A stretch of DNA of 64,000 nucleotides from Candidatus Electryonea clarkiae (lineage in GTDB: Bacteria; Electryoneota; Electryoneia; Electryoneales; Electryoneaceae), in assembly GCA_030765455.1 (NCBI GenBank), contig JAVCCM010000166.1:55835-119834 (forward strand). The letters run 5' to 3'. Each line of letters opens with the position of its first letter. The stretch's first letter is position 1. The notes under the pieces were generated by a model, which was not told where the DNA came from, did no database searches, and saw only the letters and a program-made list of their open reading frames with translations. This document shows positions 17,763 to 63,102 of the stretch, one piece after another. Position numbers and translations under genes: made by a program.

Positions 17763-17792
17763 TCTTCGCGTCTTTGCGCCTTTGCGTGAGAA
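17763..17792 (+). repeat. CTTTGCG direct-repeat motif copy A (cttcgcg-tctttgcg-cctttgcg-TGAGAA)
   Basis: Read directly. Intergenic, approx. 90-110 nt upstream of the UDP-glucuronate decarboxylase start. Confidence 0.6.
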
Positions 17793-17909
17793 TAAGTTTT
17801 AGACAGAATGAATCATGTTCACTTAAATAAAAGTATCAAATATTTTCTGCCAGATAAAGCACGAATCTGAGAGTTAAAATACCAAACATTTATAAGCAAT
17901 TCTCTTCTT

Positions 17910-18506
17910 CTATGATTCACGTATGACAAATACCGTTAATTTACATGGACCATGAACGCCCAGAACCAGTTCTTTTTCAATATCCGCGGTCCTGCTTGGT
18001 CCGGATATTATCACAGCGTTTTCATCTGTTATCCCATTCTGAATCCATAATTTGAATAATGATTCAACATCTGCTACAATCTGACTTTCCCTGATGATAA
18101 TAATATGTTCTTCAGGAAGAAGGCTGACAGAACGTAAATCGGGATATCCGGAAAAAAGCAGAGCCGAACCGGTTTCCGCAGAAATGGCAAACGCAGAGGT
18201 GATCCCAACGGAAGCATCAGCGACATCACTTTGCCAGGCTTTTGCTGATACCGGATCAGGAGTGGAGGAGAGAGGCATGGTTACTTTCAATCCACTCTTT
18301 TTCAGTAAATCTACTAACCCTATTTCATCGAGTAACGAATCACTATTAACAGCTACGTGTTCGGTTTCAGAATCTGTAAGATGTTTTAATATTCTATCCG
18401 ATACATGGGATTCCTCAACTTTAAATACTTCGGCTTGAAGTTCCACGAGTTCTATTGCCAGTTGATTATAGAGGTTATTTTCACTCATCATCAGGCTCTT
18501 GATCAT
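17910..18506 (-). CDS. lutC: lactate utilization protein C (LUD domain)
   Basis: LUD-domain-like sequence downstream of lutA and lutB. The likely start MIKSLMMSENN overlaps the lutB stop. The ORF track extends to 18599. Confidence 0.7.
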   Translation of the reverse strand: MIKSLMMSENNLYNQLAIELVELQAEVFKVEESHVSDRILKHLTDSETEHVAVNSDSLLDEIGLVDLLKKSGLKVTMPLSSTPDPVSAKAWQSDVADASVGITSAFAISAETGSALLFSGYPDLRSVSLLPEEHIIIIRESQIVADVESLFKLWIQNGITDENAVIISGPSRTADIEKELVLGVHGPCKLTVFVIRES

Positions 18507-19893
18507 CTTCGATCTTGTCAAACAGGTCGCGGAATGGTACAGGGGCAATATCCGGATTGTCCTTCTGTCTTGTCCATCCCGGAATAGGTGGATTTCCAAA
18601 CATCCAGTATCTCTGAATGTTTCGGGCAGCTTTTGTTGCCTTATTATAATTCTTTTCGTTTGACATCATCTTTTCAAAGGTTTTCCAGGCTGGAGCTTCA
18701 TAATCAATTCCCCGGTGTAAATTGATTTTCCTTGAACGTAATAGCAGCATCAATTCAGGCAGTGGTATCGAAACAGGACAAATTTCCTCACATGCTCCGC
18801 AGAGTGTGCTGGCAAAGGGATGATCAGGAGCGTTATCGAGTCCCAACAGCAATGGTGATATCACCTTTCCCATCGGACCCGGATAAACACCGCCATAAGG
18901 ATGACCGCCAACCTGTTGATAAACCGGACAGACATTCAGGCAGGCTCCGCATCGGATACACCTGAGCATCTCTCGCATTTCCAGATCTTCGTAGATGTCT
19001 TTTCGACCATTATCAACAATAATAATATGTACTTCGTCAGGACCAGAGGGGCCGGGTGAAGCTCCTCGCATCAGGTTCAGATAGACAGTTGCTTTCTGCC
19101 CGGTGGCGCTCCTTGCCAGCATCTGCCAGAGCAGTGACAAATCCTCCAATGATCGCGTTACTCTTTCCCATCCCATCAAGGCAATCACCACCCTGGGAAG
19201 AGTAGTCACCATTCGACCATTGCCTTCATTTGTTACAGTGGCAATATGACCGGTTTCAGCTACTGCGAAATTAACTCCGCAAAGACCTGCCCCGGCTGCG
19301 AGAAATTCTTGCCTTAGCACGTTCCGGGCGATATCGGTTAATTCTTCAGGATTATCAGTATAATCAATATGAAGTTTTTCCTCGAAAAGCCGACCGACAT
19401 CTTCCCTGGTAAGATGCATTGCGGGCATCGTAATATGACTTGGAGTCTCACCACGAAGCTGTACGATATACTCACCAAGGTCAGTTTCTACCGGGGTAAC
19501 TCCGTGTTCCGTAAGAAATGAATTGAGTTCTATTTCCTCGCTGAGCATGGTCTTTGATTTAAGCAGCCGGTCTATTTTATGTTTATGTAAAATGTCAAGA
19601 ACATGCCGGCAGGCGGAGTCGGAGTCTTCGGCATCATGTATAATAACACCATGCGATTTTAAATTGTCACGCAGGGTTTTATGCAACGAATGAAGATCTT
19701 CAATATCTTCCCGGCGGCGAGAGCTAATGTGTGCCCGTCTCTCGCTGAAATCCTGCCATTCACCTGCTCTTTCGTCTCTTTTAGATACTGCTTTACGAGT
19801 ATTTTTTTTATACGGCAGCTCACCATCAGGACGGTTCTTGAGAGTGTTCCTGATATTCTTTTTCAAATCATTTGTTTTTGAGGGATTGCTCAT
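18481..19893 (-). CDS. lutB: lactate utilization protein B (4Fe-4S ferredoxin-type iron-sulfur protein)
   Basis: Two ferredoxin cysteine motifs, CIRCGACLNVCPVY and CGACEEICPV. An ATGA overlap links it to lutA. Confidence 0.8.
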   Translation of the reverse strand: MSNPSKTNDLKKNIRNTLKNRPDGELPYKKNTRKAVSKRDERAGEWQDFSERRAHISSRRREDIEDLHSLHKTLRDNLKSHGVIIHDAEDSDSACRHVLDILHKHKIDRLLKSKTMLSEEIELNSFLTEHGVTPVETDLGEYIVQLRGETPSHITMPAMHLTREDVGRLFEEKLHIDYTDNPEELTDIARNVLRQEFLAAGAGLCGVNFAVAETGHIATVTNEGNGRMVTTLPRVVIALMGWERVTRSLEDLSLLWQMLARSATGQKATVYLNLMRGASPGPSGPDEVHIIIVDNGRKDIYEDLEMREMLRCIRCGACLNVCPVYQQVGGHPYGGVYPGPMGKVISPLLLGLDNAPDHPFASTLCGACEEICPVSIPLPELMLLLRSRKINLHRGIDYEAPAWKTFEKMMSNEKNYNKATKAARNIQRYWMFGNPPIPGWTRQKDNPDIAPVPFRDLFDKIEDDQEPDDE

Positions 19894-20642
19894 ATCAGCG
19901 CCTCACCTCCGGCAATGATACGGGCGTAATGCAAGGTCTGGATTGGAATCTTGTTACGTGAGAATAGACCTTGGAGGTGCATCAGGCATGAATCGTCCGT
20001 GGAAGTTACCACGTCGGCGCCGGTTTGTTGGATCGCTTCGACTTTGTCTTCACCGATGGTTGTAGATAATTCAGGAAATTTTACTGAGAATGTACCGCCG
20101 AATCCGCAACATTGTTTACGATCATCCGGTTCTACAAGATCAATTCCTTTAACTTTTCTGAGCAGCTCAACCGGTTGATCATAGATTCCCAGCTCACGAT
20201 AACCGTGGCATGATGTATGGTATGCCACGCGATGGGGAAAGGTTGCATTGAAGTCGGTACATTTCAATTCATCAACCAAGAATTCGCTGAGTTCGAAGAT
20301 TCTGTGTTTGATATTATCGTACTCATGCCGCACTAATGGACGCAGGTCAAGTTCAGCATAGTGGTTTTTAATCATTGAAACACAACTCGCAGATGGAGAA
20401 ACTATATATTCAGCATCATTGAAGATTTTAATAAACCGTTCAGCAAGATTCGTTGCTGTTTCCCGATATCCGGAATTGAATGCCGGTTGTCCGCAACAGG
20501 TCTGCTCCTTTGGATATATAATATTACATCCTGCCATCCGGAGCAACTTTACCGTTGCAAGACCGGTCTGAGGATAAATCTGGTCAACAAAACAGGGGAT
20601 GAATAAATGTACTTTTCGATTATTTGGCATCACGGCAGACAA
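19890..20642 (-). CDS. lutA: lactate utilization protein A ((Fe-S)-binding CCG-domain oxidoreductase)
   Basis: Two Cys-rich CCG-type motifs (CCGQPAF..., CCGFGG) in a 250-aa protein at the head of the lutABC order. Confidence 0.8.
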   Translation of the reverse strand: MSAVMPNNRKVHLFIPCFVDQIYPQTGLATVKLLRMAGCNIIYPKEQTCCGQPAFNSGYRETATNLAERFIKIFNDAEYIVSPSASCVSMIKNHYAELDLRPLVRHEYDNIKHRIFELSEFLVDELKCTDFNATFPHRVAYHTSCHGYRELGIYDQPVELLRKVKGIDLVEPDDRKQCCGFGGTFSVKFPELSTTIGEDKVEAIQQTGADVVTSTDDSCLMHLQGLFSRNKIPIQTLHYARIIAGGEALI

Positions 20643-20720
20643 GAAAGATTATCATAAATTTTGCGTTAAGATACGAAGGTTTTGCAGAGAAAACGAATTA
20701 CATTATTTTCAGACGGTGCA

Positions 20721-21632
20721 TTAATGAGATATGCTAAAACTAATCCAGTCATTCATTGTATCATAATATTCAGTTAATCCCAAACGCTGCGGGATATCTG
20801 TATGTCCCGCGCCGGGGATCAGTACCAGTCTTTTCGGTTCCGGGGCGTTTTCATATACGATCTTGCCATTGTCACGATAACGGACAAAATCATCTTCATC
20901 GCCGTGAAAGATCATGAATGGTACATGGATATTTTTTATGCGCTCGGCGTTATTGAACTCGCCTTCAGTCAACCAGCGATGAGGGACATCAATGATTGAG
21001 GAGCCTTGCGTCAGAGAAGTTGCAGCAGCAAATAGAGCTTCGGCAAAGAGACAGAGGGGGTCGATCTTCTCCGCAGTTAGATATATCGAAACAACATTAC
21101 CTAATGAAAATCCATAAACGATAAGCGAATCAGCCGTAACCTCATTGCGGCTGAGAACATAATCGAGAGCGGCAGTGCCATCGGAGTATAGACCATCTTC
21201 GGACGATTCTCCATCCGATTTACCGAAACCACGGTAGTCATAAATAAACAGGTTCACACCGAAATCATGGAGGAACATGACACGGTCCCAGTAGTGATCG
21301 ATATTGTGTTTATTACCGTGACAATAGAGGATGGTCAAACCTGACCGGTCGCCGTTTGAACCAACCCAGAAACCGTGCAGGGTGTTTCCATCACTGTCAA
21401 GCATGACCTCTTCGATCAATGATTCAGGAATGGTGTTACCGGGAAGTGAATACTCATCAAGCTCTTCCGAATTAAATAGAAAACTGTCGAGTTTCATACA
21501 ACTCGTCGATATGAAGCATGACAGCAGAATACATGAGAGTATCAAGGATCTGTTTGGCGATCTTTGCCCCTTTGCGCCTTTGCGTGAGAAATGTTTTATT
21601 GTTTTTTTCATCGAAACACCTAAAAATTCCAT
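20721..21632 (-). CDS. alpha/beta-fold serine hydrolase (dienelactone-hydrolase/S9-like), probably secreted
   Basis: Nucleophile elbow GFSLG and ...HGDEDDFV... The start is uncertain because a CTTTGCG repeat motif lies inside the 5' end of the ORF. Confidence 0.65.
   Translation of the reverse strand: MEFLGVSMKKTIKHFSRKGAKGQRSPNRSLILSCILLSCFISTSCMKLDSFLFNSEELDEYSLPGNTIPESLIEEVMLDSDGNTLHGFWVGSNGDRSGLTILYCHGNKHNIDHYWDRVMFLHDFGVNLFIYDYRGFGKSDGESSEDGLYSDGTAALDYVLSRNEVTADSLIVYGFSLGNVVSIYLTAEKIDPLCLFAEALFAAATSLTQGSSIIDVPHRWLTEGEFNNAERIKNIHVPFMIFHGDEDDFVRYRDNGKIVYENAPEPKRLVLIPGAGHTDIPQRLGLTEYYDTMNDWISFSISH
21561..21590 (+). repeat. CTTTGCG direct-repeat motif copy B (tctttgcc-cctttgcg-cctttgcg-TGAGAA)
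   Basis: Read directly. Lies inside the 5' end of ORF 20721-21632 (see findings). Confidence 0.6.
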
Positions 21633-22294
21633 TCAAGTGCAATCAGGGGAGCAATAGCGCCATAACCGGCGATACCGGTATATGTAACCGCAAGCTGATC
21701 ACTTCTGATATTTGCGCCTTGCCATTTGATTTCGGTGTACAGCTTGAAACGATTCCCAAGTGCCCACCTGTACCCGGCAAATGGTGAAGTCATGTAAAAT
21801 GATGCGTCTTCATCGTAGTCAGGACGAGTAGTCGGGATAACCAGGTTCATACCGGTGTAAACTGAGTTCTTTCTGTGCTGCCAGGCAGCGGAACCGGTGA
21901 GAATCGGAACAAAACGAAACCTCTCTTCAACTCCTTCTTTGACACTCATGAAAGTCATTATTCTCGGTTGAATCCCTACAGTCGGAGTTCTCCCATCACC
22001 GATTATTGGATACCATGTCGATCCAAGATCGAAACCGGTTATCCCGTAGGGGAGTGGAAGGATGTGCAGGTTTGCATCGAAATCAAGGTCGTCCCGCAGT
22101 CCGTACCTCGAACCCAAAACGGGCCACGGTGTGGGCATATTTAGACCGAATACCTTAATAATCGGTCCACCATAGCTGACATTACCCTGCCATTCTCCTT
22201 TACCAACAGGCTGGAGGTTGGTATGAGCAGCGCACCCAATGTACAACATTATTAAAATAATAGAGATAAGAAGTATATAGATTCTTGTTTTCAA
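21620..22294 (-). CDS. hypothetical outer-membrane beta-barrel-like lipoprotein (224 aa)
   Basis: Signal/lipobox MLYIGC, alternating hydrophobic pattern and a C-terminal ...EWNF (terminal Phe). Confidence 0.45.
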   Translation of the reverse strand: MKTRIYILLISIILIMLYIGCAAHTNLQPVGKGEWQGNVSYGGPIIKVFGLNMPTPWPVLGSRYGLRDDLDFDANLHILPLPYGITGFDLGSTWYPIIGDGRTPTVGIQPRIMTFMSVKEGVEERFRFVPILTGSAAWQHRKNSVYTGMNLVIPTTRPDYDEDASFYMTSPFAGYRWALGNRFKLYTEIKWQGANIRSDQLAVTYTGIAGYGAIAPLIALEWNF

Positions 22295-22359
22295 ATTATA
22301 ACCAGATCTTTTTTAATGAATTATTCTTGAAATAATATTTCATCACATAATAAATACTA

Positions 22360-22404
22360 TCACGCAAAGTCGCAAAGGCAAAACATAAGGTCGCAAAAAA
22401 AATC
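22360..22404 (-). repeat. CTTTGCG direct-repeat motif copy E (reverse orientation: tCACGCAAAGtCGCAAAGGcaaaacataaggtCGCAAAAAAAA)
   Basis: Read directly. 66-110 nt upstream of the start at 22294, just 3' of paralog C1. Confidence 0.6.
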
Positions 22405-22426
22405 TTGTTAATCCTGTCAATTTCAT

Positions 22427-24535
22427 TTATTTCAAATATACAACTTTCATCGCTTTGGTAACATCTCCTGACGACAGGACAGCGATGTATATTCCATTTG
22501 CATTATTTTTCAATTCAAAGTTGACTGTATGTCTTCCCGAATTCATTTTCCGGTTTAAAATAACAGCAACTTCACGACCGAGAATATCATATACTGCCAA
22601 TTTGATCTTGCCGGCTCTTTGCAGGCTGAATGCAATTTGTGTTGAAGAATTGAAGGGATTTGGGTAATTCTGCTCAAGCTGGAATTCAACCGGGGACAAA
22701 AAATCATGCTCCTCAACATAACGATGGTCTCTGAAAAACGGATCATACCAACCATACCAATCATAGTGATACGGATCTTCCCAGTGTCCTGCAGAATCAA
22801 TGTGTAACGGATAATTCGGGACCCAACCGGCTAAATCGTACACCGAATCCAGCAAATCCCTCTTCGCTATTCTGTAATAAATCACAGGATTATTAGTGAA
22901 CTCGCCTTCGTCCGCCATAACTGAGCCTGCATCGAGATCAAGAATGTAAGAGATATTCAGGTTATAGCCATTGAGATAATCACCATCATTATTCAGCGCA
23001 ATACTTGGTTCCCTTTCATTCCTGCAATCCCCTGCAACAAGCCCGCCTTCTGTGCCCCTGGAGTTAGTAAGATTAACCGGTTTTGTCCAGAGTCTTCCAT
23101 ACCATTCACCATGCCAGCCGTTTGGTGGGCTGAGAGTTATCATTATTTCACCGTTTGCAAGACTATCATCCGAAGCATCCCAGGCGGTTATTGTCGAATC
23201 CTCATTGATGGTATATTCATCAGGCATGCCGTATTGCTGAAAAACACAATAGAGTATTCCTGTTACTGGATCATGATACATGTTCGGTGCTTTCACCTGA
23301 TGCTGCCATCTTCCTGGCTCAGCATAATTCCAGAATTGTCCATCTGCCAGCACTGTAAATTCATTGTTTTCGTTATCCCAATGGTAGATGTAAGATGTGT
23401 AAGTAACTGAGTCCGAATAATGATAATACCCGGAAGCGGTGAATGCCACGTGTATAACGTCATCGTAATCGATATAAACATTCAAACTGTTGTAAACTCG
23501 CATTGTATCTGTATTTGCCGCAGTGGTATCGGGTAGCAGATCCGGGTCTGGAATAATGAATTCTGTAATGTTGATCGGATTGTCGAAATCCCAGGTTTCA
23601 CCGCCATCTTCGCTGATCCATAAATAAACGTCATTGTTCCATTGATTTGTCTCTTCGTTCGGATGATTATCGCTCCGGCTGATAGTCGAAACAATTGCTA
23701 CCAGCGAACCGTCATAGGAAACGTCAATATCGGCTGAAGGATTCATCCCGTTATCTGAAACAAGGAGTTGTTCTTCGGGCAGTATGAAATCGTAATAACC
23801 ATCAAAGGAACGTACAATGCGAGAATATAATATATTTACAGGATCAGTTTCATTGTCAGGATCATACTGTTGTGTGACAACATGGACGTAATGCGTATTA
23901 GCATATTCGGCAAAGGCGGCTTTTGGATAATAGTACATATCAGGAGGAATTCGTGTTCCACTAAAGACACCTGGAAATAAATTATATAATTCAGTTGCAA
24001 TCACTGAATATCCTCCAGCGGAATTATTATATACCGGATACGCAAGTCCTTCGTATAAATCCATTGCCAACACAGGAAAACCTGCCTCATCACCCTCATC
24101 AACATAACTCCTGAATTCCCCAAATTCCTGTACAAATTCTCCTTCATCTGTAATGCCTACCCTGTTAAATCTAACACGTGTAGTTACTTCAGGATAATCG
24201 ACCAGTCTAGTCAAGACAAAAAAAGCTGCGGACACGCAGTCATCTTCGTTATGGATTTGTATTTCATCAGGATAATAACCAATCATCCTCCCGATAGTGC
24301 CATAATGCTGTAAATCAATCAAGGTTGTTCCAATTATGACAGTATCCTCGTCTAGTTCTCCAGCGTGAGGGACAAAAGCCGGTGCATTTTCTAATTGGGC
24401 TACATCGAGATCAAGAACCGGTGGTATGAATTTTTCCGGAAATGGAATTTTAGGCGACGGCAAAGTTTTACCGAAAGAGATGGATACAACTAATAATAGA
24501 GATAAAACGAATGATGCTAATGTTTTACGAATCAT
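22427..24535 (-). CDS. T9SS-sorted Asp-box (BNR)-like protein, paralog C1
   Basis: Signal peptide. WISEDGGETWD matches the S-x-D-x-G-x-T-W Asp-box. HVVTQQ and ...PNGWHGEWYGRLW are shared with C2 and C3. CTD YPNPFNSS...GIYIAVL...VVYLK. RBS GGAGGGG. Confidence 0.8.
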   Translation of the reverse strand: MIRKTLASFVLSLLLVVSISFGKTLPSPKIPFPEKFIPPVLDLDVAQLENAPAFVPHAGELDEDTVIIGTTLIDLQHYGTIGRMIGYYPDEIQIHNEDDCVSAAFFVLTRLVDYPEVTTRVRFNRVGITDEGEFVQEFGEFRSYVDEGDEAGFPVLAMDLYEGLAYPVYNNSAGGYSVIATELYNLFPGVFSGTRIPPDMYYYPKAAFAEYANTHYVHVVTQQYDPDNETDPVNILYSRIVRSFDGYYDFILPEEQLLVSDNGMNPSADIDVSYDGSLVAIVSTISRSDNHPNEETNQWNNDVYLWISEDGGETWDFDNPINITEFIIPDPDLLPDTTAANTDTMRVYNSLNVYIDYDDVIHVAFTASGYYHYSDSVTYTSYIYHWDNENNEFTVLADGQFWNYAEPGRWQHQVKAPNMYHDPVTGILYCVFQQYGMPDEYTINEDSTITAWDASDDSLANGEIMITLSPPNGWHGEWYGRLWTKPVNLTNSRGTEGGLVAGDCRNEREPSIALNNDGDYLNGYNLNISYILDLDAGSVMADEGEFTNNPVIYYRIAKRDLLDSVYDLAGWVPNYPLHIDSAGHWEDPYHYDWYGWYDPFFRDHRYVEEHDFLSPVEFQLEQNYPNPFNSSTQIAFSLQRAGKIKLAVYDILGREVAVILNRKMNSGRHTVNFELKNNANGIYIAVLSSGDVTKAMKVVYLK

Positions 24536-24620
24536 TTTTCCCCTCCAGATTAATCTCGTAACGTATAATTGAAATTGAATATGTAGTTAAATACTATAAT
24601 CTATTTGAATATGATAATTC

Positions 24621-26795
24621 TTATCTGACTAAAACTACTTTCTTCACTTCTGCCATCTTCCCCGGTACACTGGCATGGATGAAGTAAGTACCACTTGATG
24701 CGGATTCAGCATTCCATAGTATTGAATGATATCCAGTTGGTTGTGTGGAATTTACAAGGGTTGTAATTAATTGCCCGTTAATGTTATACACTTGTAGATA
24801 AAAATCCGATGGTGCAGGCAAACTGTATGACAACCGTGTTGAAGCGTTAAATGGATTGGGATAAGCCAACGACAGGTTGAATTGAGCAGGTATTGTTATA
24901 ACCAGATCAGCAACTTCATCAGGATCGGTAAAGCGATATATTCCCAGGTTTGTGCCGTCTGCGAGATAAATAAGATTATCCATTGCATGAACTCCATTGC
25001 CATAACCTGGCGAATCATAGTATCCTACTATTGAAGGATTCTCCGGATCAACGATGGAGATGACATTCAAACCACTTTCACCGTTCGTTACGTAAGCAAA
25101 GATACCAGAAACCGTGACGCCTTTGGCTGCTCCCATTGTTTCACAGCTCCCCACTTCTTCCGGATTTTCTGGATCGGAAACATCGATGACACGCAAACCG
25201 TCATAATAACCTTGACCTAAGCCGATCGATACGTAAGCATAGTCTTCGGAAACCGTGACGCACCAGGCTGGGTCCTCAAATTCATAGAATCCCACTTCTA
25301 CTGGTGCGCTCGGATCAGCAATGTCAACAATATTAAGTGCGCCTGGAACAAATGGAAAATCAATCCCTTCAGCAATATATGCGTAGTCACCAGATACCGT
25401 GACGTCCACCGCATAATTTGTTTGAACATATCCCACTTCTTCTGGATTCTCAGGGTCGGCAATGGAGATGATATACGTAGCACGACCAGCTGCAACTAAA
25501 GCATAGTCGCCGGAAATTGTTAAACCTGAGGGGTGACCAAGTGAATCACAGAATCCCACTTCTTCTGGATTTTCTGGATCAATAACTGAGATAATACGCA
25601 AACCACCTTCCATATCCGCTATAAAAGCATGGTTACCTGAAACTATAACGCCGCAGGCACGCCCTGGTGTTTCACAGGATCCCACTTCTTCCAGATTATC
25701 AGGCTCGACAACTGAGATGACATGCAAACCGTTTTCCCCGTTGGCTACGTAAGCAAAGTTGCCGGAAACCGTTACGTCCATGACCCATCCATTTGTATCA
25801 TAGAATCCAACCTCTTCCGGAGATTCAGGATCGGCTACGGAGATGATGCGCAAACCGCTATCCCAGTCCGCTACGTAAGTATAATCGCCGGAAACCGTGA
25901 CGCCATAGGCATTCCCGGGTGTATCATAGTATCCCACCTCTTCCGGAACTCTAGGATTGGCAACTGAAATGACACGTAAACCACTAATTCTATCCGCTAC
26001 GAAAGCATAATCGCCGGAAACCGCGACGCCCTCAGCATCCCCCTCAGTATAACAGAATCCAACCTCCTCAGGATTTTCAGGATCTGCAATGGAGATAACG
26101 CTTAAACCACGTCTACTAAAAGCAACATAAGCAAAGTCGCCGGAAACTGTGACACCAAATGCATTCCTCTCAATATTATAGAATCCCACTTCTTCAGGTT
26201 GTTCAGGATCGGTAATGTCAATCACGCGTAAACCATGCAAAAGGTCAACAGCGTAAGCATAGTTTCCGGAAACCACAACGTCCATGGCAGCAAGTCCCGT
26301 ATCATAGTTTCCCACAACAATAGGAAGTTCAGGATTTTCAATAGAAATGATGCACAAACCGCTATACCTGCTCGTTACATAAGCGTGGTTACCCGAGACC
26401 GCGAGATTCCGAGCAATATCCGGAGTATCACAATGTCCTACTTCTTCAGGATTCTCAGGATCAGCAACTGAAATGATGTATAAACCGTCGTACCCATTTG
26501 CAACGTAAGCATATTCGCCTGAAACACATACGCCTTCTGCTTCATTGATGTAATCCAAATAGCCTATTAACTCAGGATTTTCCGGATTGGAAACATCCAC
26601 GATCTGCAGCCCGGAAACCCCAGTAGCAACGTAAGCCAAATCACCGACTACGAAGATATCTTCGGCACGATCCCAATTATTGTAAATCCTTCCGACCTGT
26701 ACGATGTTTTCATGATCCTGGGCTACTACAATTGAACACGCAAAAACTATGGAACAAAGAGTAGTATGCAACAGAAATGTACTTCGCATCTTCAT
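24621..26795 (-). CDS. T9SS-sorted LVIVD-repeat beta-propeller protein
   Basis: At least 13 tandem approx. 45-aa repeats of the form DPENPEEVG..DT.G.A.GV.VSG.YAYVA....GL.VIS(V/I)A (LVIVD repeat signature). CTD YPNPFNAST...GTYFI...KVVLVR. Confidence 0.8.
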   Translation of the reverse strand: MKMRSTFLLHTTLCSIVFACSIVVAQDHENIVQVGRIYNNWDRAEDIFVVGDLAYVATGVSGLQIVDVSNPENPELIGYLDYINEAEGVCVSGEYAYVANGYDGLYIISVADPENPEEVGHCDTPDIARNLAVSGNHAYVTSRYSGLCIISIENPELPIVVGNYDTGLAAMDVVVSGNYAYAVDLLHGLRVIDITDPEQPEEVGFYNIERNAFGVTVSGDFAYVAFSRRGLSVISIADPENPEEVGFCYTEGDAEGVAVSGDYAFVADRISGLRVISVANPRVPEEVGYYDTPGNAYGVTVSGDYTYVADWDSGLRIISVADPESPEEVGFYDTNGWVMDVTVSGNFAYVANGENGLHVISVVEPDNLEEVGSCETPGRACGVIVSGNHAFIADMEGGLRIISVIDPENPEEVGFCDSLGHPSGLTISGDYALVAAGRATYIISIADPENPEEVGYVQTNYAVDVTVSGDYAYIAEGIDFPFVPGALNIVDIADPSAPVEVGFYEFEDPAWCVTVSEDYAYVSIGLGQGYYDGLRVIDVSDPENPEEVGSCETMGAAKGVTVSGIFAYVTNGESGLNVISIVDPENPSIVGYYDSPGYGNGVHAMDNLIYLADGTNLGIYRFTDPDEVADLVITIPAQFNLSLAYPNPFNASTRLSYSLPAPSDFYLQVYNINGQLITTLVNSTQPTGYHSILWNAESASSGTYFIHASVPGKMAEVKKVVLVR

Positions 26796-26868
26796 CTCCT
26801 CTATTCAGGGCGAACTGTAAAACAGAGAAAGGCTTTACGATTCATCACACATCCAATATCGTAAAATT

Positions 26869-28851: not shown

Positions 28852-28953
28852 AATGCCCTCAAAACTTAATGAAACAAGAAAATGTTCAGCTTCACGCTTT
28901 GAATCTCTGCGCAAGACAATTTTTTCGAAAACAAAACAGCAAAGAATTTTTTC

Positions 28954-29000
28954 CTCACGCAAAGTCGCAAAGGCAAAACATAAGGTCGCAAAAAAAATCC
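28954..29000 (-). repeat. CTTTGCG direct-repeat motif copy F (reverse orientation; its 42-nt core is near-identical to copy E)
   Basis: ctCACGCAAAGtCGCAAAGGcaaaacataaggtCGCAAAAAAAAtcc. 100-150 nt upstream of the C2 start and just 3' of C3. Confidence 0.6.
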
Positions 29001-29032
29001 TGTAAATCTTGTTAATCCTGTCCGATCCCATC

Positions 29033-36451: not shown

Positions 36452-36482
36452 TGCAGGATCCGGACGTGAGATACAATATCAA

Positions 36483-45172: not shown

Positions 45173-45203
45173 TTCTTTGCACCTTTGCGTCTTTGCGTGA
45201 AAA
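45173..45203 (+). repeat. CTTTGCG direct-repeat motif copy C (ttctttgca-cctttgcg-tctttgcg-TGAAAA)
   Basis: Read directly. 57-87 nt upstream of the start at 45260, downstream of asd. Confidence 0.6.
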
Positions 45204-49002: not shown

Positions 49003-49017
49003 GAAGATAATTTTTTG

Positions 49018-51696: not shown

Positions 51697-51971
51697 TTTC
51701 GGCTCCTTTTTGAATAATGTAAATTCTTATGTATAAAATATGTGGTTTATCTGTGTGATCTCTATTTGAGCTAATTCCTTATCAATTCCACGTCATTACA
51801 AGCAAAGCGAAGCAATCCCATAAAACATATATCTGGTGTATCATTAAAGCTAAGGGCAGACGTGTGTTGTTTCAAGAGAAATGGTAAAATAAAGGTATTT
51901 GTTTTGTTTCCGGTATTACAGACAGTTTTTGCTCTCTGCGGGAATATTTACTAATGGTTCATTGTACATAA

Positions 51972-52069
51972 TTTGCTGAGTAGCTCACTTTCGCCGAAAG
52001 TGAGTCGTTTGCACGGAAATCGTTGGTACAGTTGGACTCACTTTCGGCGAAAGTGAGCTACTCAGCAAA
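51972..52069. repeat. 98-nt nested perfect inverted repeat (35-nt arms, 28-nt spacer; each arm holds the internal palindrome ctcactttcgccgaaagtgag)
   Basis: tttgctgagtagctcactttcgccgaaagtgagtc at 51972-52006 is the exact reverse complement of 52035-52069. Confidence 0.8.
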
Positions 52070-52090
52070 ACAATACAACTGCTATCAAAC

Positions 52091-52121
52091 AGAAACGCCC
52101 GGTGATAATCCGGGCGTTTCT
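52091..52121 (-). terminator. terminator hairpin agaaacgcccgg-N7-ccgggcgtttct after the FG-GAP gene stop
   Basis: 12-bp stem 25 nt past the stop at 52147. The minus strand reads GTTTCTGTTTG after the stem. Confidence 0.5.
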
Positions 52122-52146
52122 ACTCCTACAGCTACATAAAAAATAA

Positions 52147-53973: not shown

Positions 53974-54077
53974 ATAAACCACCCGATATTCGGAAATTGT
54001 GATTTGCTCCACTAATACATATCTGCGGCTTAATCTTGACGATTAAGCCGCTGGTTTAATAAGCACTAATATCCAAT

Positions 54078-54108
54078 AATAATGCCCGGGAGGAAACCGG
54101 GCATTATT
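54078..54108 (-). terminator. terminator hairpin aataatgcccgg-N7-ccgggcattatt after the paralog B2 stop
   Basis: 12-bp stem 16 nt beyond the stop at 54124. Same GC core (atgcccgg/ccgggcat) as the hairpin at 48971. Confidence 0.5.
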
Positions 54109-54123
54109 GATGATAATCTTTTG

Positions 54124-56829: not shown

Positions 56830-57020
56830 TTTTGGCTCCTTGTTACAATCTAAGTGCGGTTCATTGCGGCAACGTTCTCTATGTATAACTTCTTTGTTAC
56901 ATCAATAATACTTTAAACTATATAAATGAAAAGCATTATTCAAGTATTCTCGCGAAAATTCATTGTTTTAATGCAAATGTTTTAATCAAATATCCTGCGA
57001 CTTTCTCATTGTGAACCGCT

Positions 57021-57983
57021 TCAGGGGCTTCTTATCAAATTGTCAAACGTATCAATATCTATGTTTCCACCCGATAATATTAAACCAATTCTTTTATTCT
57101 TGAATATGTTCGGTTTAGAGAGGATTGCACCCAATGTGATAGCTGCGGATGGTTCAACAATAATATCCAAATACTTCCGGATTATCTGCATGGCAGTAAT
57201 GATAAATTCGTCACTTACAAGCATTATCTCAGAAACAGTTCTCTGGATAACTGGAAATGTCCGGCTGCCAAGCGATGTCAACAAACCATCAGCAATAGTA
57301 TCCGGGTTTTCAGAGGGAATGATTTTTCCTGCCTTGAGTGATCGATAAGCGTCATCAGCGCCTTTTGGTTCCGCGCCGATTAATGTAGCTTGAGGAATTT
57401 TTTCTGACAGAGTAATTGCCGTACCACTAATCAGACCACCTCCTCCAACCGGAGATATGACAACATCCAGGTCAGTTATTGTTTTGCATAGTTCTAATGC
57501 AGCAGTGCCTTGCCCCGCAATCACATTGTAATTATTATACGGATGAACAAATGTTGCCCCGGTTTCATTAATAACTTCCTCACTTTTTTCTTCCCTGGCT
57601 TGCAGAGTAGGTTTACAGAAGATTATTTCTGCTTCATTATTCCTGACTGATTCTATTTTTATTTTTCTTGTGTTTTCGGGCATTATAACATAGGCTTTAA
57701 TACCTTGCGTTTTTGCAGCAAGCGAAAGAGCGCCGGCAAAATTTCCGGATGAATGCGTGACTACTCCATTTATTCTTTCATCATGCGCAAGGTTGAGGAT
57801 GGCGTTAGTTGCGCCCCGGATTTTGAAGGATCCCGATTTCTGGAAATTCTCGCATTTGAAAAACAGCTCGCCATTGTAAATGTCATTAATTTTATCAGAC
57901 GTGAGTACCGGAGTTTCGTTTATGAATGGATTAATTTTCCGGTGTGTATCCTGTATATCACTGAATGTTGGTTCATGAATCAT
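57021..57983 (-). CDS. PLP-dependent serine/threonine dehydratase (threonine ammonia-lyase-like, no regulatory domain)
   Basis: PLP-lysine motif FKCENFQKSGSFKIRGA, Gly-rich PLP-phosphate loop SPVGGGGLISG, 320 aa. Confidence 0.8.
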   Translation of the reverse strand: MIHEPTFSDIQDTHRKINPFINETPVLTSDKINDIYNGELFFKCENFQKSGSFKIRGATNAILNLAHDERINGVVTHSSGNFAGALSLAAKTQGIKAYVIMPENTRKIKIESVRNNEAEIIFCKPTLQAREEKSEEVINETGATFVHPYNNYNVIAGQGTAALELCKTITDLDVVISPVGGGGLISGTAITLSEKIPQATLIGAEPKGADDAYRSLKAGKIIPSENPDTIADGLLTSLGSRTFPVIQRTVSEIMLVSDEFIITAMQIIRKYLDIIVEPSAAITLGAILSKPNIFKNKRIGLILSGGNIDIDTFDNLIRSP

Positions 57984-58173
57984 TTACATTTCCTGTTCCG
58001 TCTGTATTCCCAAAATTTAATGGATAAATTTTGTTTTGATAATATCGTTATTTTCTACTCTGCATAGTCAAGTAAAGATTTGCCTTCAGTTAGTCAAATC
58101 TCTTACTTTTACCTACAGTTCCATCATGCAATAGATATCATTATTTGAAGAAATATTATATTTCTCAGCAACT

Positions 58174-58261
<88 letters not shown>

Positions 58262-58397
58262 AAACGGGTTGTGAATCTCAGACGAGAGCATAACCCGTTG
58301 TTATTCTAAACATAATGCCTTATAATTACAAAGGATTGAAAAAAGTATTGTTCCCCGCCTTTATCATTATCCGGCAATGGAAAACAAGGAGGCTGCC

Positions 58398-58835
58398 ATG
58401 ACAATTACAATAAATCGCATACCTTTAGTCCCGGTTCTAAAAATAGGGTTCATGATATATTTTCTTATGGCATTTATCGGGCTGCTGCTTTATTCCACGA
58501 TTATTTTAAGTGTTATCGGCACAATCGGCAGTTTGATTGGAGGGTTAAATCTGCCGATGGCTATGCCGGGCGGCGGTTCTATGATCTTCATTGGTCTATT
58601 TGGCGCAATTTTTATAGCAATAATTTACACTATTCTTACAATGATAGTGGTTCTGATTTATAATGCTGCTTCTTCGTTTGCAGGAGGTATTGAAGTAGAT
58701 GTGGAATCGTCGGAGATGGATTCCTTGCGGGAACGAGTAAATTCACTACATTCGGATATGATTGAGCTGCAGAATCAAAACACTGGGTTGATCACTCCTG
58801 AAGAGGATAATGAGACTGTTTCAGAGTCTCAATAG
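58398..58835 (+). CDS. hypothetical small membrane protein (two to three TM helices plus a C-terminal acidic/coiled tail)
   Basis: The ATG at 58398 is preceded by AAGGAGG with 6-nt spacing. Hydrophobic segments IGFMIYFLMAFIGLLLYSTIILSVIG and IFIGLFGAIFIAIIYTILTMIVVLIY. Confidence 0.5.
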   Translation: MTITINRIPLVPVLKIGFMIYFLMAFIGLLLYSTIILSVIGTIGSLIGGLNLPMAMPGGGSMIFIGLFGAIFIAIIYTILTMIVVLIYNAASSFAGGIEVDVESSEMDSLRERVNSLHSDMIELQNQNTGLITPEEDNETVSESQ

Positions 58836-58971
58836 AGTTGTTATAATCATAAATAGAAATAATTAAAATTACACAAACTAATCAATCTCTAACGCATCAT
58901 AATTGGTTAAATAACTGGTATAATATTAAGTCTTAACATAGTTGCATTCAACCAGACAGGAACATTTTACC

Positions 58972-60429
58972 ATGAGCATTCCACGATTACGATTTGCACC
59001 AAGTCCTACAGGTTATCTCCATATTGGCGGCGCACGAACCGCTATCTTCAACTGGCTGCTTGCCAGGAAGCTGGGTGGGAAATTCCTGCTGAGAATTGAG
59101 GATACTGATAAATCCCGTTCGAAAAAAGAATACGAGGATGACATTCTGGACGCCATGCAATGGTTGAATATAGTTCCGGATGAAGAATTGCTGCGTCAGT
59201 CCAACCAGGGAAGCTTTTACCGGGAAGTAGTAGATGCCTTGATTCAAAGAGGAGCTGCTTATCGTGATTTTGTGTCTCCTGAAGAAACGGAAATGTTGAA
59301 AGCAGAGTCAATTAAAAGCGGTGTACAGGTTGCATTCAGAGGGATTCATCGGGATATGAATCAAGAAACTTCTGATCGACTGGTGGAAACCGGCGAGCCC
59401 TATGCAGTTCGTTTCAAGATTCCCGATGAATCAGTGGTTTTTCAGGATGGAGTACATGGCAAAGTAGAAGTACCTCCCGATTCCATTGAAGATTTTGTAA
59501 TCATGCGTCGTGATTTCACCCCAACTTATCAGGTCGCAGTGGTTTCAGATGATTTTCTCATGGGTATAACCCACGTTATCCGCGGGGATGATCATATTTC
59601 CAATACACCAAAGCAGACTTTGATTTATAAGGCAATGGGCTGGGAGCCACCTGAATTTATCCATGTTCCCTTGATTCTCGGACCGGACAAAAAACGACTC
59701 TCGAAACGTCATGGTGCATCTGCTGTAACTGAATATCGCGATAAGGGTTACCAGCCTGAAGCAATTTTTAATTTTCTTGCATTGCTTGGGTGGTCGCCTG
59801 GTGACGACAGGGAGAATATGACACCTGAGGAGATGATCGAAGCGTTCAGCATAAAAGGGATCAACCCTAAAAGCGCAGTTTTTGATGAGAAGAAATTAGA
59901 GTGGATGAATGGAGAATATCTTTCTAGGTTACCGGACGAGGTGCTTATTAAACAACTGCGTCCTGTCATAGCGGAAAAGGTTATTTCCGGTGAACTGCCG
60001 AAGGGTTGCGGCTCAATGCTTCCGGTGGCTGTAAAATTAATTAAGAGTCGAGCACGTGTTCCATTGGATATTATTGATAGAAACCTATATTTTTTTAAAG
60101 AACCGGAAACACTTGATCCCAAAGCCGCAAAGAAACGGCTGAAAGACCCGGAAACTCCTGAACGTCTTGAGGAGCTTGCCCGAAGGTTCGATGCGCTTAG
60201 CGATTTCAACGAAGAGACAACCGATGAGGTTTTAAGGACATATGCTGAGGAGCTGGAAGTAGGTTCAGGGAAATTGATTCATCCCACACGCCTCGCAGTC
60301 ACAGGAATTGGTGGTGGTCCGGGACTCTATGATGTATTAATTGCATTAGGGAAAGAAAAAGTTATTAATAGAATGAAGTGGCTTGCCGATCTCCTCCGGG
60401 AGAAAGGAACACCGCCGAATCTTTCATAG
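58972..60429 (+). CDS. gltX: glutamyl-tRNA synthetase
   Basis: PSPTGYLHIGGARTA (HIGH motif), KLSKRHG (KMSKS motif), 486 aa. Confidence 0.9.
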   Translation: MSIPRLRFAPSPTGYLHIGGARTAIFNWLLARKLGGKFLLRIEDTDKSRSKKEYEDDILDAMQWLNIVPDEELLRQSNQGSFYREVVDALIQRGAAYRDFVSPEETEMLKAESIKSGVQVAFRGIHRDMNQETSDRLVETGEPYAVRFKIPDESVVFQDGVHGKVEVPPDSIEDFVIMRRDFTPTYQVAVVSDDFLMGITHVIRGDDHISNTPKQTLIYKAMGWEPPEFIHVPLILGPDKKRLSKRHGASAVTEYRDKGYQPEAIFNFLALLGWSPGDDRENMTPEEMIEAFSIKGINPKSAVFDEKKLEWMNGEYLSRLPDEVLIKQLRPVIAEKVISGELPKGCGSMLPVAVKLIKSRARVPLDIIDRNLYFFKEPETLDPKAAKKRLKDPETPERLEELARRFDALSDFNEETTDEVLRTYAEELEVGSGKLIHPTRLAVTGIGGGPGLYDVLIALGKEKVINRMKWLADLLREKGTPPNLS

Positions 60430-60510
60430 ATAGCAATATTGACATTAAATGCTATGTCGTTTATGAAGCTGTTTCAAATCAACAGGTTATAGGTTAGAGT
60501 AAAGAATATT

Positions 60511-61692
60511 ATGCGGATAAAAAGCACATCAAAATTAGAAGAAGGTGAGGTTTTAGGCAAATCAGTATTCAATGAGCGATCTGAACTCATGCTCTCATCG
60601 GGTTATGTTCTTACTGAAGCGATGATTTCTCTTTTAAAACACAAGGGTTTTAACTATGTCTATATCATGGATGGAATCAGCAAGGATATAATCCCAGAGG
60701 AGGTTATTTCCGATGTGATTCGACAGGCAACAAATTCCAAGATTGCTAAAACTTTTGAAGGGGTTAAAAACAATCTTGCATTTGAAAAATTCGCCCCGGA
60801 AGAAATCAAAAAGCGCTTGGTCGAAGATGCAGAAATGCATAATATAGTTAAGATGACTGATGTTCGAGAACAGGTCGAGCAAATGCTTGAAGAAATTATC
60901 GATAATAATTTGACAATGTTCACCTCATTGCCCATGAAATCTGAGAGTGGAGCGGATTATGAACATGCATTTGATACATCTGTTCTGAGCATACTGATGG
61001 CTCAGGAATTCAAATATGATCAGCATGAAATGAAAACGATCGGCTCATCAGCAATGGTACATGACATTGGCAAAATGGCGTTTGGTGATATGGCGGAGAA
61101 AAAAGAGAGTGATCTCAGTCGGGACGAGAAAATGTTGCTCAGGGAACACCCGGTATATTCAATGTTGATTCTCCAGGGCAGTGAACCCGATGCTTTTGTT
61201 GAACACACAACAGTATTCCAACATCATGAACAGGTCAATGGAAAAGGGTATCCTCAAGGATTAAAAGGTATAAACAAGCCGCCGACCAAAAGCAGGGGAA
61301 ACGATAAGCGGTATATTTATCGCATGGCTGAAATTATTGCTGTCGCAAATGTATATGATAATCTAACCTCAGGTGCGCTTGACGGAACTATACGTACCCC
61401 GGAAGATGCAATTGTAGAAATAATCAACGGGGAAACGGGAGAATGGAACCAATCAGTGATAAAAAAACTCACCAAGGTAGTACAATGTTATCCAGTGGGT
61501 TCGACTGTTAGAATTAAAAATAATATATCAAATAAATATATTGATTATAGAGGAATAATTACCAAAGCCAACCCGAAGGATCAATCAAGACCAACTATTC
61601 TACTCACTAATAATTCACTGGGAGCGCCTATCATGCCGCGCCTTGTAGATTTTAAAGATGAGAAAGAAATGAGCATAAGGCTCGAACTATAA
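60511..61692 (+). CDS. HD-GYP-type metal-dependent phosphohydrolase (putative c-di-GMP phosphodiesterase)
   Basis: HDIGK metal site and HHEQVNGKGYP, matching the HD-GYP consensus HHE..DG.GYP with an Asn for Asp substitution. Confidence 0.65.
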   Translation: MRIKSTSKLEEGEVLGKSVFNERSELMLSSGYVLTEAMISLLKHKGFNYVYIMDGISKDIIPEEVISDVIRQATNSKIAKTFEGVKNNLAFEKFAPEEIKKRLVEDAEMHNIVKMTDVREQVEQMLEEIIDNNLTMFTSLPMKSESGADYEHAFDTSVLSILMAQEFKYDQHEMKTIGSSAMVHDIGKMAFGDMAEKKESDLSRDEKMLLREHPVYSMLILQGSEPDAFVEHTTVFQHHEQVNGKGYPQGLKGINKPPTKSRGNDKRYIYRMAEIIAVANVYDNLTSGALDGTIRTPEDAIVEIINGETGEWNQSVIKKLTKVVQCYPVGSTVRIKNNISNKYIDYRGIITKANPKDQSRPTILLTNNSLGAPIMPRLVDFKDEKEMSIRLEL

Positions 61693-61820
61693 TACAAGGG
61701 AATAATAGCGACCGACCTCAGTACACGTTTAATATAGTGATGAGATGTAACAATTTATATTTAGAGTCTCTGTTTTCCTTCATTGAACTATGTTAAGTAA
61801 TTTTAAAGGGAGTAACATAA

Positions 61821-62033
61821 ATGCCACTTAGCTCTGAACTACTGGAAATTCTTGTTTGTCCTGATACTAAGGCGAAACTTGTGCTTGACGGCGAGACGCT
61901 TGTCAGTACAGACAAAGAAACCCGGCGTCGTTACAGGATAGATAACGATATCCCGGTAATGCTCATTGAAGAGTCCGAAGTATTAGAGGTAGAAGAATGG
62001 GAAGAGATAATGCAAAAACACGGGAAGTCTTGA
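61821..62033 (+). CDS. Trm112/YcaR-family small protein
   Basis: LLEILVCPDTKAKL...DIPVMLIEES is typical of Trm112/DUF343, at 70 aa. Confidence 0.6.
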   Translation: MPLSSELLEILVCPDTKAKLVLDGETLVSTDKETRRRYRIDNDIPVMLIEESEVLEVEEWEEIMQKHGKS

Positions 62034-62041
62034 GCCTGGAC

Positions 62042-63007
62042 ATGGTCATGATCGCTCCTAACCAAAACAACAATAGGTGCAGTGAAACCACTTCGGTATT
62101 TTCGCTTATTATCTTTGTCGTATTTTTCATAGCCCACCCCTTAACAGGTTTTTCTAAAACCCCCGAATTTGATGGAAATTCTGCCTTTACTTTCCTTTAT
62201 AAACAATGCGCGATGGGACCTAGGATTCCTGGCAGTGAGACACATGCAAGTGCAGTTAAGGATTTTCAGGATTGGTTTGATCGTTGCGGTGGTTCAGTCA
62301 CCCTTCAAGAATTTAATGCAGATGTACATGTCAGCTATAAATCTGGAAGCGAAACGCAAGAGTTGGAAGGCATCAATGTAATCGCTCGTTTTGGTCCTGT
62401 CGGGCGTCCCGATTACCTACTTTGCGCACATTATGATACACGCCCCTGGGCGGATAAGGACGAAGATCCGGAAAACAGGATGACACCGATATCCGGAGCT
62501 AACGATGGTGCTTCCGGAGTAGCGGTCCTGCTCGAGATGGCACGGATATTTGCGGCTGAACCACCACCACTCACAATTGAAATCGTTTTATTCGATATTG
62601 AAGATTCCGGAGTTTCAGGTAATAATGAGAGCTATTGCCTCGGAAGCGCATATTATGCAAAGCATTATGCAGGCTCGGCGCCTCCAGGTGCAGTTTTGTT
62701 GGATATGATAGGTGATACCGACCTGGAAATTCCTATTGAATATTTCAGCTTTGCCTACGCGAAAGATTGGACAAATTATATGTTTGATCTTGCTGAGAAA
62801 GTAGGCTCAGAAGCATTTGTCGATGATATAGGTGTTCCGATGTATGATGATCATGTCAACCTTATCCGGAACGGAATTCCGACGGTCAATTTTATCGACT
62901 TCGATTATCCATATTGGCACACTCTCGAAGATACACCCGATAAATGTTCACCTGAATCACTCGAACAGGTTGGAAGAGTGCTGGTTGAATTGATATATGG
63001 CAACTGA
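62042..63007 (+). CDS. M28-family zinc enzyme resembling glutaminyl-peptide cyclotransferase, membrane-anchored
   Basis: ...LLCAHYDTRP...GANDGASGVAVLLEMARIF... parallels the QC/M28 metal-ligand blocks (recalled, not searched). N-terminal TM helix FSLIIFVVFFIA. Start at ATG 62042, which avoids overlap with the Trm112-like gene. Confidence 0.6.
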   Translation: MVMIAPNQNNNRCSETTSVFSLIIFVVFFIAHPLTGFSKTPEFDGNSAFTFLYKQCAMGPRIPGSETHASAVKDFQDWFDRCGGSVTLQEFNADVHVSYKSGSETQELEGINVIARFGPVGRPDYLLCAHYDTRPWADKDEDPENRMTPISGANDGASGVAVLLEMARIFAAEPPPLTIEIVLFDIEDSGVSGNNESYCLGSAYYAKHYAGSAPPGAVLLDMIGDTDLEIPIEYFSFAYAKDWTNYMFDLAEKVGSEAFVDDIGVPMYDDHVNLIRNGIPTVNFIDFDYPYWHTLEDTPDKCSPESLEQVGRVLVELIYGN

Positions 63008-63071
63008 AGAAGCCTGTCCTGGACAACCAGAACAAAAACTTACAAGGATGTACAGGATAAACAGGATTATT

Positions 63072-63102
63072 TCTTTGCGCCTTTGCGTCTTAGCGTGAGA
63101 AA
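63072..63102 (+). repeat. CTTTGCG direct-repeat motif copy D (tctttgcg-cctttgcg-tcttagcg-TGAGAAAA)
   Basis: Read directly. Lies between the convergent M28 gene and the nnr gene. Confidence 0.6.

Follow-up and report, generated by a model that had tools for sequence, protein, structure and literature searches.

A 64-kb stretch of contig JAVCCM010000166.1 (hereafter the window, meaning the whole stretch of DNA that was analysed) belongs to the metagenome-assembled genome of Candidatus Electryonea clarkiae, a member of the phylum Electryoneota within the Fibrobacterota-Chlorobiota-Bacteroidota (FCB) group, and the organism was described from Ace Lake, Antarctica; an exact match to the window's UDP-glucuronate decarboxylase is recorded under this name. 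Between its genes, among them those for a UDP-glucuronate decarboxylase, an alpha/beta hydrolase, MiaA, Asd, an M28 peptidase and proteins with sorting domains of the type IX secretion system (T9SS), the window carries a short repeat built of CTTTGCG heptads. The core of this repeat, (CTTTGCG-Y)2-4 closed by TGA-R-A and referred to as an arm in the following, defines a family that is dispersed in the intergenic DNA of at least ten phyla. This family is linked to genes for GxxExxY proteins and is indifferent to gene orientation.

A first-pass annotation had described six copies in the window with a TGAGAA-type end, and this was confirmed. With the core pattern CTTTGCGnCTTTGCGTGAGAA, six intergenic copies were found at up to two mismatches where none is expected, and the six sites are also the full set of matches to CTTTGCGNCTTTGCGTGAGAA on both strands when up to three mismatches are allowed, each site having 0-2. 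No match to the latter pattern occurred in 100 dinucleotide shuffles of the window, and the bare heptad CTTTGCG is present 22 times against an expectation of 5.8 ± 2.5. The motif is real and far above chance. A third, more degenerate heptad on the 5' side, which had also been proposed, is real as well, because Tandem Repeats Finder shows period-8 arrays of about three units each at five of the six sites. A profile made from the six copies retrieved a seventh, degenerate one (Table 1), and an extension of the right side of the window by 9 kb contained no further copy. None of the seven copies lies within a well-supported gene. The heptads are conserved among the copies; the spacer base and the flanks are variable. 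The two minus-strand copies of the original set (22357 and 28952), for which a common stretch of about 40 nt had been claimed, have 45 identical bases in common (gattttttttgcgaccttatgttttgcctttgcgactttgcgtga). In four of the six copies (17772, 22357, 28952 and 63081) a second array, ACAGGATnnACAGGAT, i.e. (ACAGGATnn)2-3, is located upstream; its period is 9 bp, compared with 8 bp for the CTTTGCG arrays.

Table 1. Copies of the heptad repeat in the window, with their sequence elements and neighbouring genes; positions count from the first nucleotide of the window
Copy	Extent	Core	Strand	Elements	Surroundings	Direction
1 (composite)	17734..17792	17772-17792	+	CAGGGAT gc ACAGGAT ta ACAGGAT, T-rich linker, CTTCGCG t CTTTGCG c CTTTGCG, TGAGAA	between UDP-glucuronate decarboxylase start 17682 (-) and stop of next minus-strand gene 17910	away from decarboxylase gene
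2	21562..21590	21570-21590	+	CTTTGCC c CTTTGCG c CTTTGCG TGAGAA; no ACAGGAT array	junction of 224-aa gene stop and alpha/beta-hydrolase start	away from nearby start
3 (composite)	22357..22417	22357-22377	-	ACAGGAT ta ACAAGAT, T8, linker, CTTTGCG a CTTTGCG TGATAG	63 nt 5' of 224-aa gene (start 22294)	same as gene
4 (composite)	28952..29021	28952-28972	-	three ACAGGAT-type units (period 9), 45-nt stretch of copy 3, end CTTTGCG a CTTTGCG TGAGGA	about 100 nt 5' of ATG 28851, T9SS-tailed protein	same as gene
5	45174..45203	45183-45203	+	CTTTGCA c CTTTGCG t CTTTGCG TGAAAA; no ACAGGAT array	between asd stop 45107 and ATG 45260 of 502-aa protein	same as both genes
6 (composite)	63043..63101	63081-63101	+	CAAGGAT gt ACAGGAT aa ACAGGAT, T-rich linker, CTTTGCG c CTTTGCG t CTTAGCG, TGAGAA	between convergent genes for M28 peptidase (stop 63007) and NAD(P)H-hydrate dehydratase (stop 63213)	
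7 (degenerate)	14721..14752		-	TTTTGCG t TCTTTGTT c CTTTGCG TGAAAC	25 nt 5' of miaA ATG (14704)	same as gene

The composite of both array types is also found on related metagenome contigs. A scan of metagenomes with the pattern ACAGGATN{8,36}CTTTGCGNCTTTGCGTGA returned 53 loci, whose low-GC members include several contigs of the window's own Joint Genome Institute (JGI) sample as well as contigs from Ace Lake. These low-GC contigs carry the same composite as the window, namely (ACAGGATnn)2-4, a T-rich linker and (CTTTGCGn)3-4, followed by TGAGAAAA or TGAAAAA. In 262 kb of related low-GC contigs, 44 unique copies were detected with the six-copy profile, and 16 of the 25 ACAGGAT double arrays have a CTTTGCG array within 110 nt downstream. 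The ACAGGAT and CTTTGCG arrays are joined with fixed polarity in this lineage, and the motif is a dispersed, intergenic, orientation-independent repeat of about 60-70 nt with roughly one copy per 5-10 kb. The gene contexts of the 44 copies, from crude gene calls based on open reading frames (ORFs), were ++ in 15 and -- in 12 cases, convergent (+-) in seven and divergent (-+) in four. At one locus (L147:10180-10330), an ACAGGAT array in inverted orientation (aaATCCTGTatATCCTGTacATCCTTGT) lies about 60 nt downstream of a composite copy, so that ACAGGAT arrays can form inverted pairs around a CTTTGCG arm.

The arm itself has a far wider range. A scan with the 18-mer CTTTGCGNCTTTGCGTGA, using one genome per species, gave at least 120 loci from Acidobacteriota, Bacteroidota, Planctomycetota, Verrucomicrobiota, Cyanobacteriota, Chloroflexota, Desulfobacterota, Pseudomonadota, Spirochaetota and Nitrospirota, these ten being the minimum. 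Among the matches listed are many Pyrinomonadaceae (Acidobacteriota) and the cyanobacterial genera Nostoc, Anabaena, Dolichospermum and Tolypothrix; Calothrix also carries the arm family. The cross-phylum matches are not due to chance, as 230 unique arms also show conservation at positions that the search pattern did not cover. A third heptad upstream of the pattern is recognizable in these arms (C.55, T.81, T.73, T.51, G.56, C.54, G.51), the spacer base is a pyrimidine in 82-85%, and TGA is followed by a purine in 95%, then by A in 66%, and then by a T-rich, G-poor stretch. The resulting consensus is tt-CTT(T/g)GCG-y-CTTTGCG-y-CTTTGCG-TGA-R-A. The window copies fit this logo in every respect and are thus solo arms of the CTTTGCGY family; all six as well as the degenerate seventh show its defining features, i.e. 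at least two CTT[T/G]GCG heptads, an 8-bp period, a pyrimidine spacer, a TGA-R-A end and an intergenic position.

In a set of 241 arms, 117 are solo, 34 face inward across the TGA end, and 86 belong to hairpin doublets with an inverted partner on the heptad side. Doublets have the form tcTCACGCAAAGgCGCAAAGaCGCAAAG-loop-CTTTGCGtCTTTGCGcCTTTGCGTGAga, i.e. tcTCA[CGCAAAGr]3 - loop - [yCTTTGCG]3TGAga, with spacers of 25-140 nt and stems that reach 28-35 bp. The free spacer bases between the heptads are complementary in 32 of 50 doublets (19.9 expected), and in 50 doublets and gene-carrying cassettes (see below) the inverted repeat continues for 2-5 nt past TCA/TGA. Other short tandem arrays (GGATTGTG, TTGTCATn, AATTCCTAA, ATCCGTGAA and others) adjoin about 20 of the 241 arms in other phyla; array types are thus combined in a modular fashion outside the lineage of the window as well. 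Trains of 6-10 tandem units with one arm each (CTTGGCGttCTTTGCGcCTTTGCGTGAGA plus a 17-60-nt spacer) were found at L197:700-1900, L199, L097:5510-5930 and L172:3440-3730, where they stand alone or directly beside GxxExxY genes. Judging from these trains, arms can evidently be amplified locally as higher-order tandem repeats.

With respect to neighbouring genes, 82 of the pooled arms lie between co-directional, 41 between convergent and 14 between divergent genes, compared with intergenic length shares of 0.61, 0.18 and 0.21, respectively; these counts rest on crude gene calls and include both arms of a doublet. Convergent gene pairs thus have more arms between them than expected and divergent pairs fewer, a pattern commonly seen for repeat DNA that is tolerated, and the orientation of arms between co-directional genes is balanced (23 versus 24 across phyla, 15 versus 12 in the lineage of the window). 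In the first-pass annotation, five of the six window copies had been placed 60-150 nt in front of gene starts. Its numbers are about right, but they carry little information: in short intergenic regions, unless the flanking genes converge, every position is close to a gene start. Just three of the six copies, or four of the seven, point towards the gene that they precede (copies 3, 4, 5 and 7, at a distance of 25-100 nt); copies 1 and 2 point away, and copy 2 (21570) moreover lies inside a called ORF. Copy 6 (63081) lies between convergent genes, which the first-pass annotation had itself counted against a pure promoter role. A distribution indifferent to gene starts, which the first-pass annotation itself had named as the observation that would speak against a regulatory site, is what was found, and it supports the alternative of a dispersed element resembling repetitive extragenic palindromic (REP) sequences.

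The link to GxxExxY genes emerged where two arms are located about 440-630 nt apart. They delimit cassettes of about 0.5 kb, whose interior consists of a single ORF of about 125 aa with the signature GPGLLESVY. The ORF matches TIGR04256, "GxxExxY protein" (1e-43), and PF13366, PDDEXK_3 (7e-42), and belongs to the PD-(D/E)XK nuclease superfamily. A GxxExxY gene is precisely bracketed by arms in ten loci that had been selected by the motif (L010, L060, L011, L050, L119, L111, L117, L156, L126 and L149). The geometry of the cassettes, tcTCA[CGCAAAGn]3, GxxExxY gene, [nCTTTGCG]3TGAga, is that of terminal inverted repeats, and the cassettes are often wedged between co-directional housekeeping genes, inside operons. 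When the 761 ORFs located within 400 nt of arms were compared all against all, GxxExxY was the only family that recurred in more than a handful of loci. The same link appears from the side of the gene: all seven GxxExxY loci sampled in this way, six of them via a protein database and one on a viral contig, lie among heptad arrays. In six of the seven these are CTT[T/G]GCG arrays, arranged as terminal inverted repeats, as flanking hairpins or as trains in which 8-10 arm units recur about every 43 nt. The viral gene (L196:1200-2022, from an IMG/VR contig), the only locus returned by a scan of viral contigs for GxxExxY, is 49% identical to the query and is flanked by other arrays, CGCAGATaa and ATCAGCGnn, which hints that different GxxExxY clades may go with different arrays.

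GxxExxY proteins of different phyla share 46-69% identity, and the residues E27, D67, E77 and K79 are invariant. This conservation fits both an active PD-(D/E)XK site and spread by horizontal transfer. At 50% identity, the family counts as many as 20,539 representatives (E≤0.001), and a sequence search of the PDB with GxxExxY returned no relative. In a 2012 survey of the PD-(D/E)XK superfamily, PF13366 was listed as a family of unknown function with "multiple transfers, mixed clades". Many of the representatives (P0242-P0387) have N- or C-terminal extensions that look like translated short arrays, such as SHAKPQ.R, HQAHQGHQARQ, SRPPSRPPRPSR and HTDITDYTDIT. Translated CTTTGCG arms were recognized in the extensions of 2 of 150 representatives with narrow search patterns, other array-like peptides being visible. 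About a dozen representatives are tandem double proteins of 250-295 aa. On the contigs of the P0095 group (L186-L195), the upstream gene, the arm, the GxxExxY gene and about 115 nt of DNA downstream of it are shared, and past a fixed point (...gcgctgtgccac) six different sequences follow. These six divergent continuations reflect either multiple genomic copies or rearrangement at another repeat.

Among described systems, the closest parallel is provided by REPs and their doublets (REPINs) together with the REP-associated tyrosine transposases (RAYTs). REPs and REPINs are short intergenic repeats that are present in hundreds of copies per genome as singlets and as hairpin-forming inverted doublets, and the association of RAYTs with REPs was first recognized from RAYT genes that are bracketed by two inverted REPs (Bertels and Rainey 2011, PMC3116915; PMC3337134). 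The heptad family likewise comprises singlets, hairpin doublets and a small nuclease-type gene bracketed by inverted repeats, it is a short intergenic repeat at high copy number, likewise of hundreds per genome (7 in 64 kb, 44 unique copies in 262 kb), and both are tolerated mainly at the 3' ends of genes. In contrast to a REP, the heptad unit is a tandem array of 7+1-bp direct repeats and not an imperfect palindrome, it has no GTAG head, and its sequence is common to at least ten phyla instead of being specific to a species or genus. Unlike REPINs, the window copies are all singlets without inverted partner and without fold, and doublets occur in other phyla. The bracketed gene encodes a GxxExxY protein and not a tyrosine transposase of the IS200/IS605-type HUH/Y1 class, it is, unlike RAYT genes, often present in multiple copies, and no RAYT was seen among the recurrent neighbours of arms in the 761 ORFs. 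By analogy, the heptad family would thus work most like the REP/REPIN-RAYT system, yet it departs from that system in the features by which its members are recognized.

Miniature inverted-repeat transposable elements (MITEs), for example the Correia elements of Neisseria and Nezha of cyanobacteria, are gene-less elements of 60-170 bp with terminal inverted repeats, and they have longer, gene-carrying relatives with the same ends. Like MITEs, the heptad elements comprise gene-less forms of this size and longer forms with a gene and identical ends, lie between genes and are occasionally read into ORFs. Terminal inverted repeats are present in the doublets and cassettes of other genomes but absent at the solo arms of the window. 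In contrast to MITEs, the heptad elements show neither a visible target-site duplication nor an associated DDE transposase, their inverted repeats are built of repeated heptads, and only the arms are conserved, the interiors being unrelated between copies. The short tandemly repeated repetitive (STRR) sequences of heterocystous cyanobacteria consist of contiguous heptamer units such as CCCCAGT. Like the heptad arrays, STRRs are intergenic short tandem repeats based on 7 bp, often form hairpins via inverted arrays and have no known function (PMC2670836), and the arm family also occurs in Nostoc, Anabaena, Calothrix and Tolypothrix. Unlike STRRs, the heptad arrays have an 8-bp period with a free pyrimidine spacer, a fixed TGA-R-A terminus, only 2-4 units and a range far beyond cyanobacteria. 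Within the set of papers searched, there was no link between STRRs and GxxExxY genes, no paper with double-heptad strings, no account of the repeat and no link of GxxExxY to any repeat; plasmid and phage collections contained no match to the cassette or the hairpin.

Taken together, the heptad family consists of dispersed intergenic repeats that, by analogy with these systems, would be served by a putative nuclease supplied in trans. We lean, if only slightly, towards reading the window copies as REP/REPIN- or MITE-like repeat DNA whose arrays are recognition sites of a GxxExxY-type nuclease. The arrays would act at the level of DNA, and the putative nuclease would copy them, maintain them or home into them, much as RAYT transposases serve REPs and REPINs, and transposases provided in trans serve MITEs. 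In the lineage of the window, the arm has been joined to a second array type (ACAGGATnn) and amplified. Under such a mechanism, the copies in the window would amount to selfish or domesticated repeat DNA, and any effect on neighbouring genes would be incidental, such as the addition of a stop-free basic peptide to an N-terminus or the separation of transcription units.

Several observations weigh against this reading. The window copies are solo arms without an inverted partner, and no GxxExxY gene is present in the window, in the 9 kb past its end or on the Ace Lake contigs of the lineage that were examined. Arms also flank ordinary genes such as rpsR, and therefore flanking alone proves nothing. 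At 50 doublets and cassettes a direct target-site duplication was sought, and none was visible. The comparison of related sites is of little help, two other assemblies of the region being identical to the window and the nearest relative having a flanking gene (a UXS homologue) that is only 76% identical. The structure model of GxxExxY was poor (AlphaFold, shallow alignment, pLDDT 60), and Foldseek gave no informative fold matches. Finally, conserved heptads combined with variable spacers and flanks are explained by recent copying no better, and perhaps less well, than by selection for a binding site.

This last point is the basis of an alternative in which the heptad and ACAGGAT arrays are kept by selection as sites of an abundant host DNA-binding protein, independently of GxxExxY. 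Such a protein might serve in nucleoid organisation, in the insulation of transcription units or as a roadblock to replication or transcription, and the GxxExxY cassettes would merely share or exploit its sites. The conservation of the heptads next to a variable eighth base and variable flanks, the orientation-independent and strictly intergenic position of the element, the share of solo arms, which is about half in all phyla, and the lack of a nuclease gene near the window copies are all in line with a host factor. We nevertheless consider it unlikely, since with a period of 8 bp neighbouring sites face different sides of the helix, arm units accumulate in trains directly beside GxxExxY genes, and horizontal transfer of an element accounts more readily for an identical 18-mer in at least ten phyla together with GxxExxY proteins of 46-69% identity than does a host factor that is conserved in only some members of each phylum. 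To our knowledge, no candidate protein has been described. The long stems of the doublets and cassettes lend themselves to an explanation at the level of RNA, in which they would be sites for RNase III or other processing, or stabilisers that isolate the RNA of the inserted gene from the host operon, whereas solo arms would bind an RNA-binding protein; ACAGGAU, for instance, resembles GGA-type CsrA sites. Stems of up to 28-35 bp, spacer complementarity above chance and the location of cassettes inside operons between co-directional genes argue for such a role, as does the suggestion that STRR hairpins may affect transcript stability (PMC2670836), and for the long perfect stems of doublets and cassettes it is plausible. 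As an explanation of the repeat as a whole it is improbable. The window copies have no partner arm, and folding of the six copies on both strands gave z-scores of -1.8 to +1.75 relative to shuffled sequences, i.e. no signal. With Rfam 15 at the gathering score, the window yielded two tRNAs only and 20 hairpin or cassette loci yielded nothing. For the window copies, the short structured RNA considered in the first-pass annotation thus found no support. Both arm orientations are equally frequent between co-directional genes, and a transcript would therefore carry the sense or antisense form at random. Intrinsic terminators, which combine a G+C-rich hairpin with a U-tract, are not formed either, since no U-tract is present; a terminator scan of the window copies detected only a weak 7-pair stem with G-U pairs and no T-run.

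The explanation originally favoured was an operator or promoter element, in which a response regulator of the winged-helix type, or some other protein that binds direct repeats, would occupy the tandem heptads and control a regulon of genes for secreted or envelope proteins. PhoB/OmpR-type boxes consist of 7-bp direct repeats with a 4-bp spacer and a period of 10-11 bp. The heptad arrays resemble them, and binding sites in general, in that a conserved 7-bp core is directly repeated in intergenic DNA with a variable spacer in between; four of the seven window copies are directed at a nearby gene start, and copies 3 and 4 could be spanned by hexamers that weakly resemble those of sigma-70 promoters. 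These hexamers are inconsistent, no consistent -10-like base follows TGAGAA in the window, and the periods of 8 bp, or 9 bp for ACAGGAT, differ from that of PhoB/OmpR boxes. The arrays also lack a fixed distance or orientation relative to promoters: orientation is mixed, one copy lies between convergent genes, divergent regions are depleted of arms, and in at least ten phyla the neighbours are functionally unrelated housekeeping genes of every kind. The proposed association with secreted and envelope proteins does not exceed the background of the window, where at least a quarter of the genes carry T9SS sorting domains. A role as operator is thus very improbable.

Gene finders place the start of the alpha/beta-hydrolase gene at 21611, by which copy 2 falls within its first codons. 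With this ATG, the reversed arm (21550-21611, minus strand) is translated as MKKTIKHFSRKGAKGQRS (...HFSRKGAKGQR...), a basic n-region in front of a hydrophobic stretch. In the TCTCACGCAAAG orientation, an arm has no stop codon in any frame, and arms can therefore be absorbed into ORFs. Copies 2 (+) and 3 (-) face each other across the 224-aa gene (21620-22294, minus strand) with their TGA ends inward, a geometry that is also found around some GxxExxY genes (P0095 loci). Neither Pfam nor NCBIfam contains a family that matches the 224-aa protein. Its bracketing may be a coincidence, since elsewhere arms flank ordinary genes such as rpsR. For the same reason, and in view of the missing family assignment, the idea that arms are general markers of cargo genes, which would have applied to the 224-aa gene, was rejected. 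Elsewhere in the window, a tandem repeat of 126 bp with about 3.5 copies of 73-76% identity is located at 25662-26235 within a large gene of the T9SS/BNR type, and several genes for T9SS-tailed proteins are paralogous to each other, with 74-86% DNA identity between 1310-5491 and 10335-13369.

For the annotation of the window, it follows that the heptad sites should not be read as the signal of a regulon. Arrays of this type also pollute gene calls with peptides such as ...SRKGAKAQR... and ...LCVFASLRE. The interest of the repeat rests on the cross-phylum link between repeat and nuclease and not on gene regulation in the window. In a broader proposal, which we regard as possible rather than probable, CTTTGCGY arrays and the GxxExxY protein would form an undescribed pan-bacterial partnership of repeat and nuclease, either as a PD-(D/E)XK counterpart of REPIN and RAYT or as a homing cassette whose empty site is the hairpin doublet. 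Such a system would move between phyla and seed genomes such as that of Ca. Electryonea with hundreds of arrays, and further clades of the protein family would have the remaining array types (ACAGGATnn, GGATTGTG, CGCAGATaa and others) as their cognate sites. If the link is true, GxxExxY, a very large family of unknown function, would gain a concrete substrate, (CTTTGCGY)3TGAGA, and a testable role, and the intergenic short tandem arrays of many environmental phyla would be the footprint of a mobile or domesticated nuclease system.

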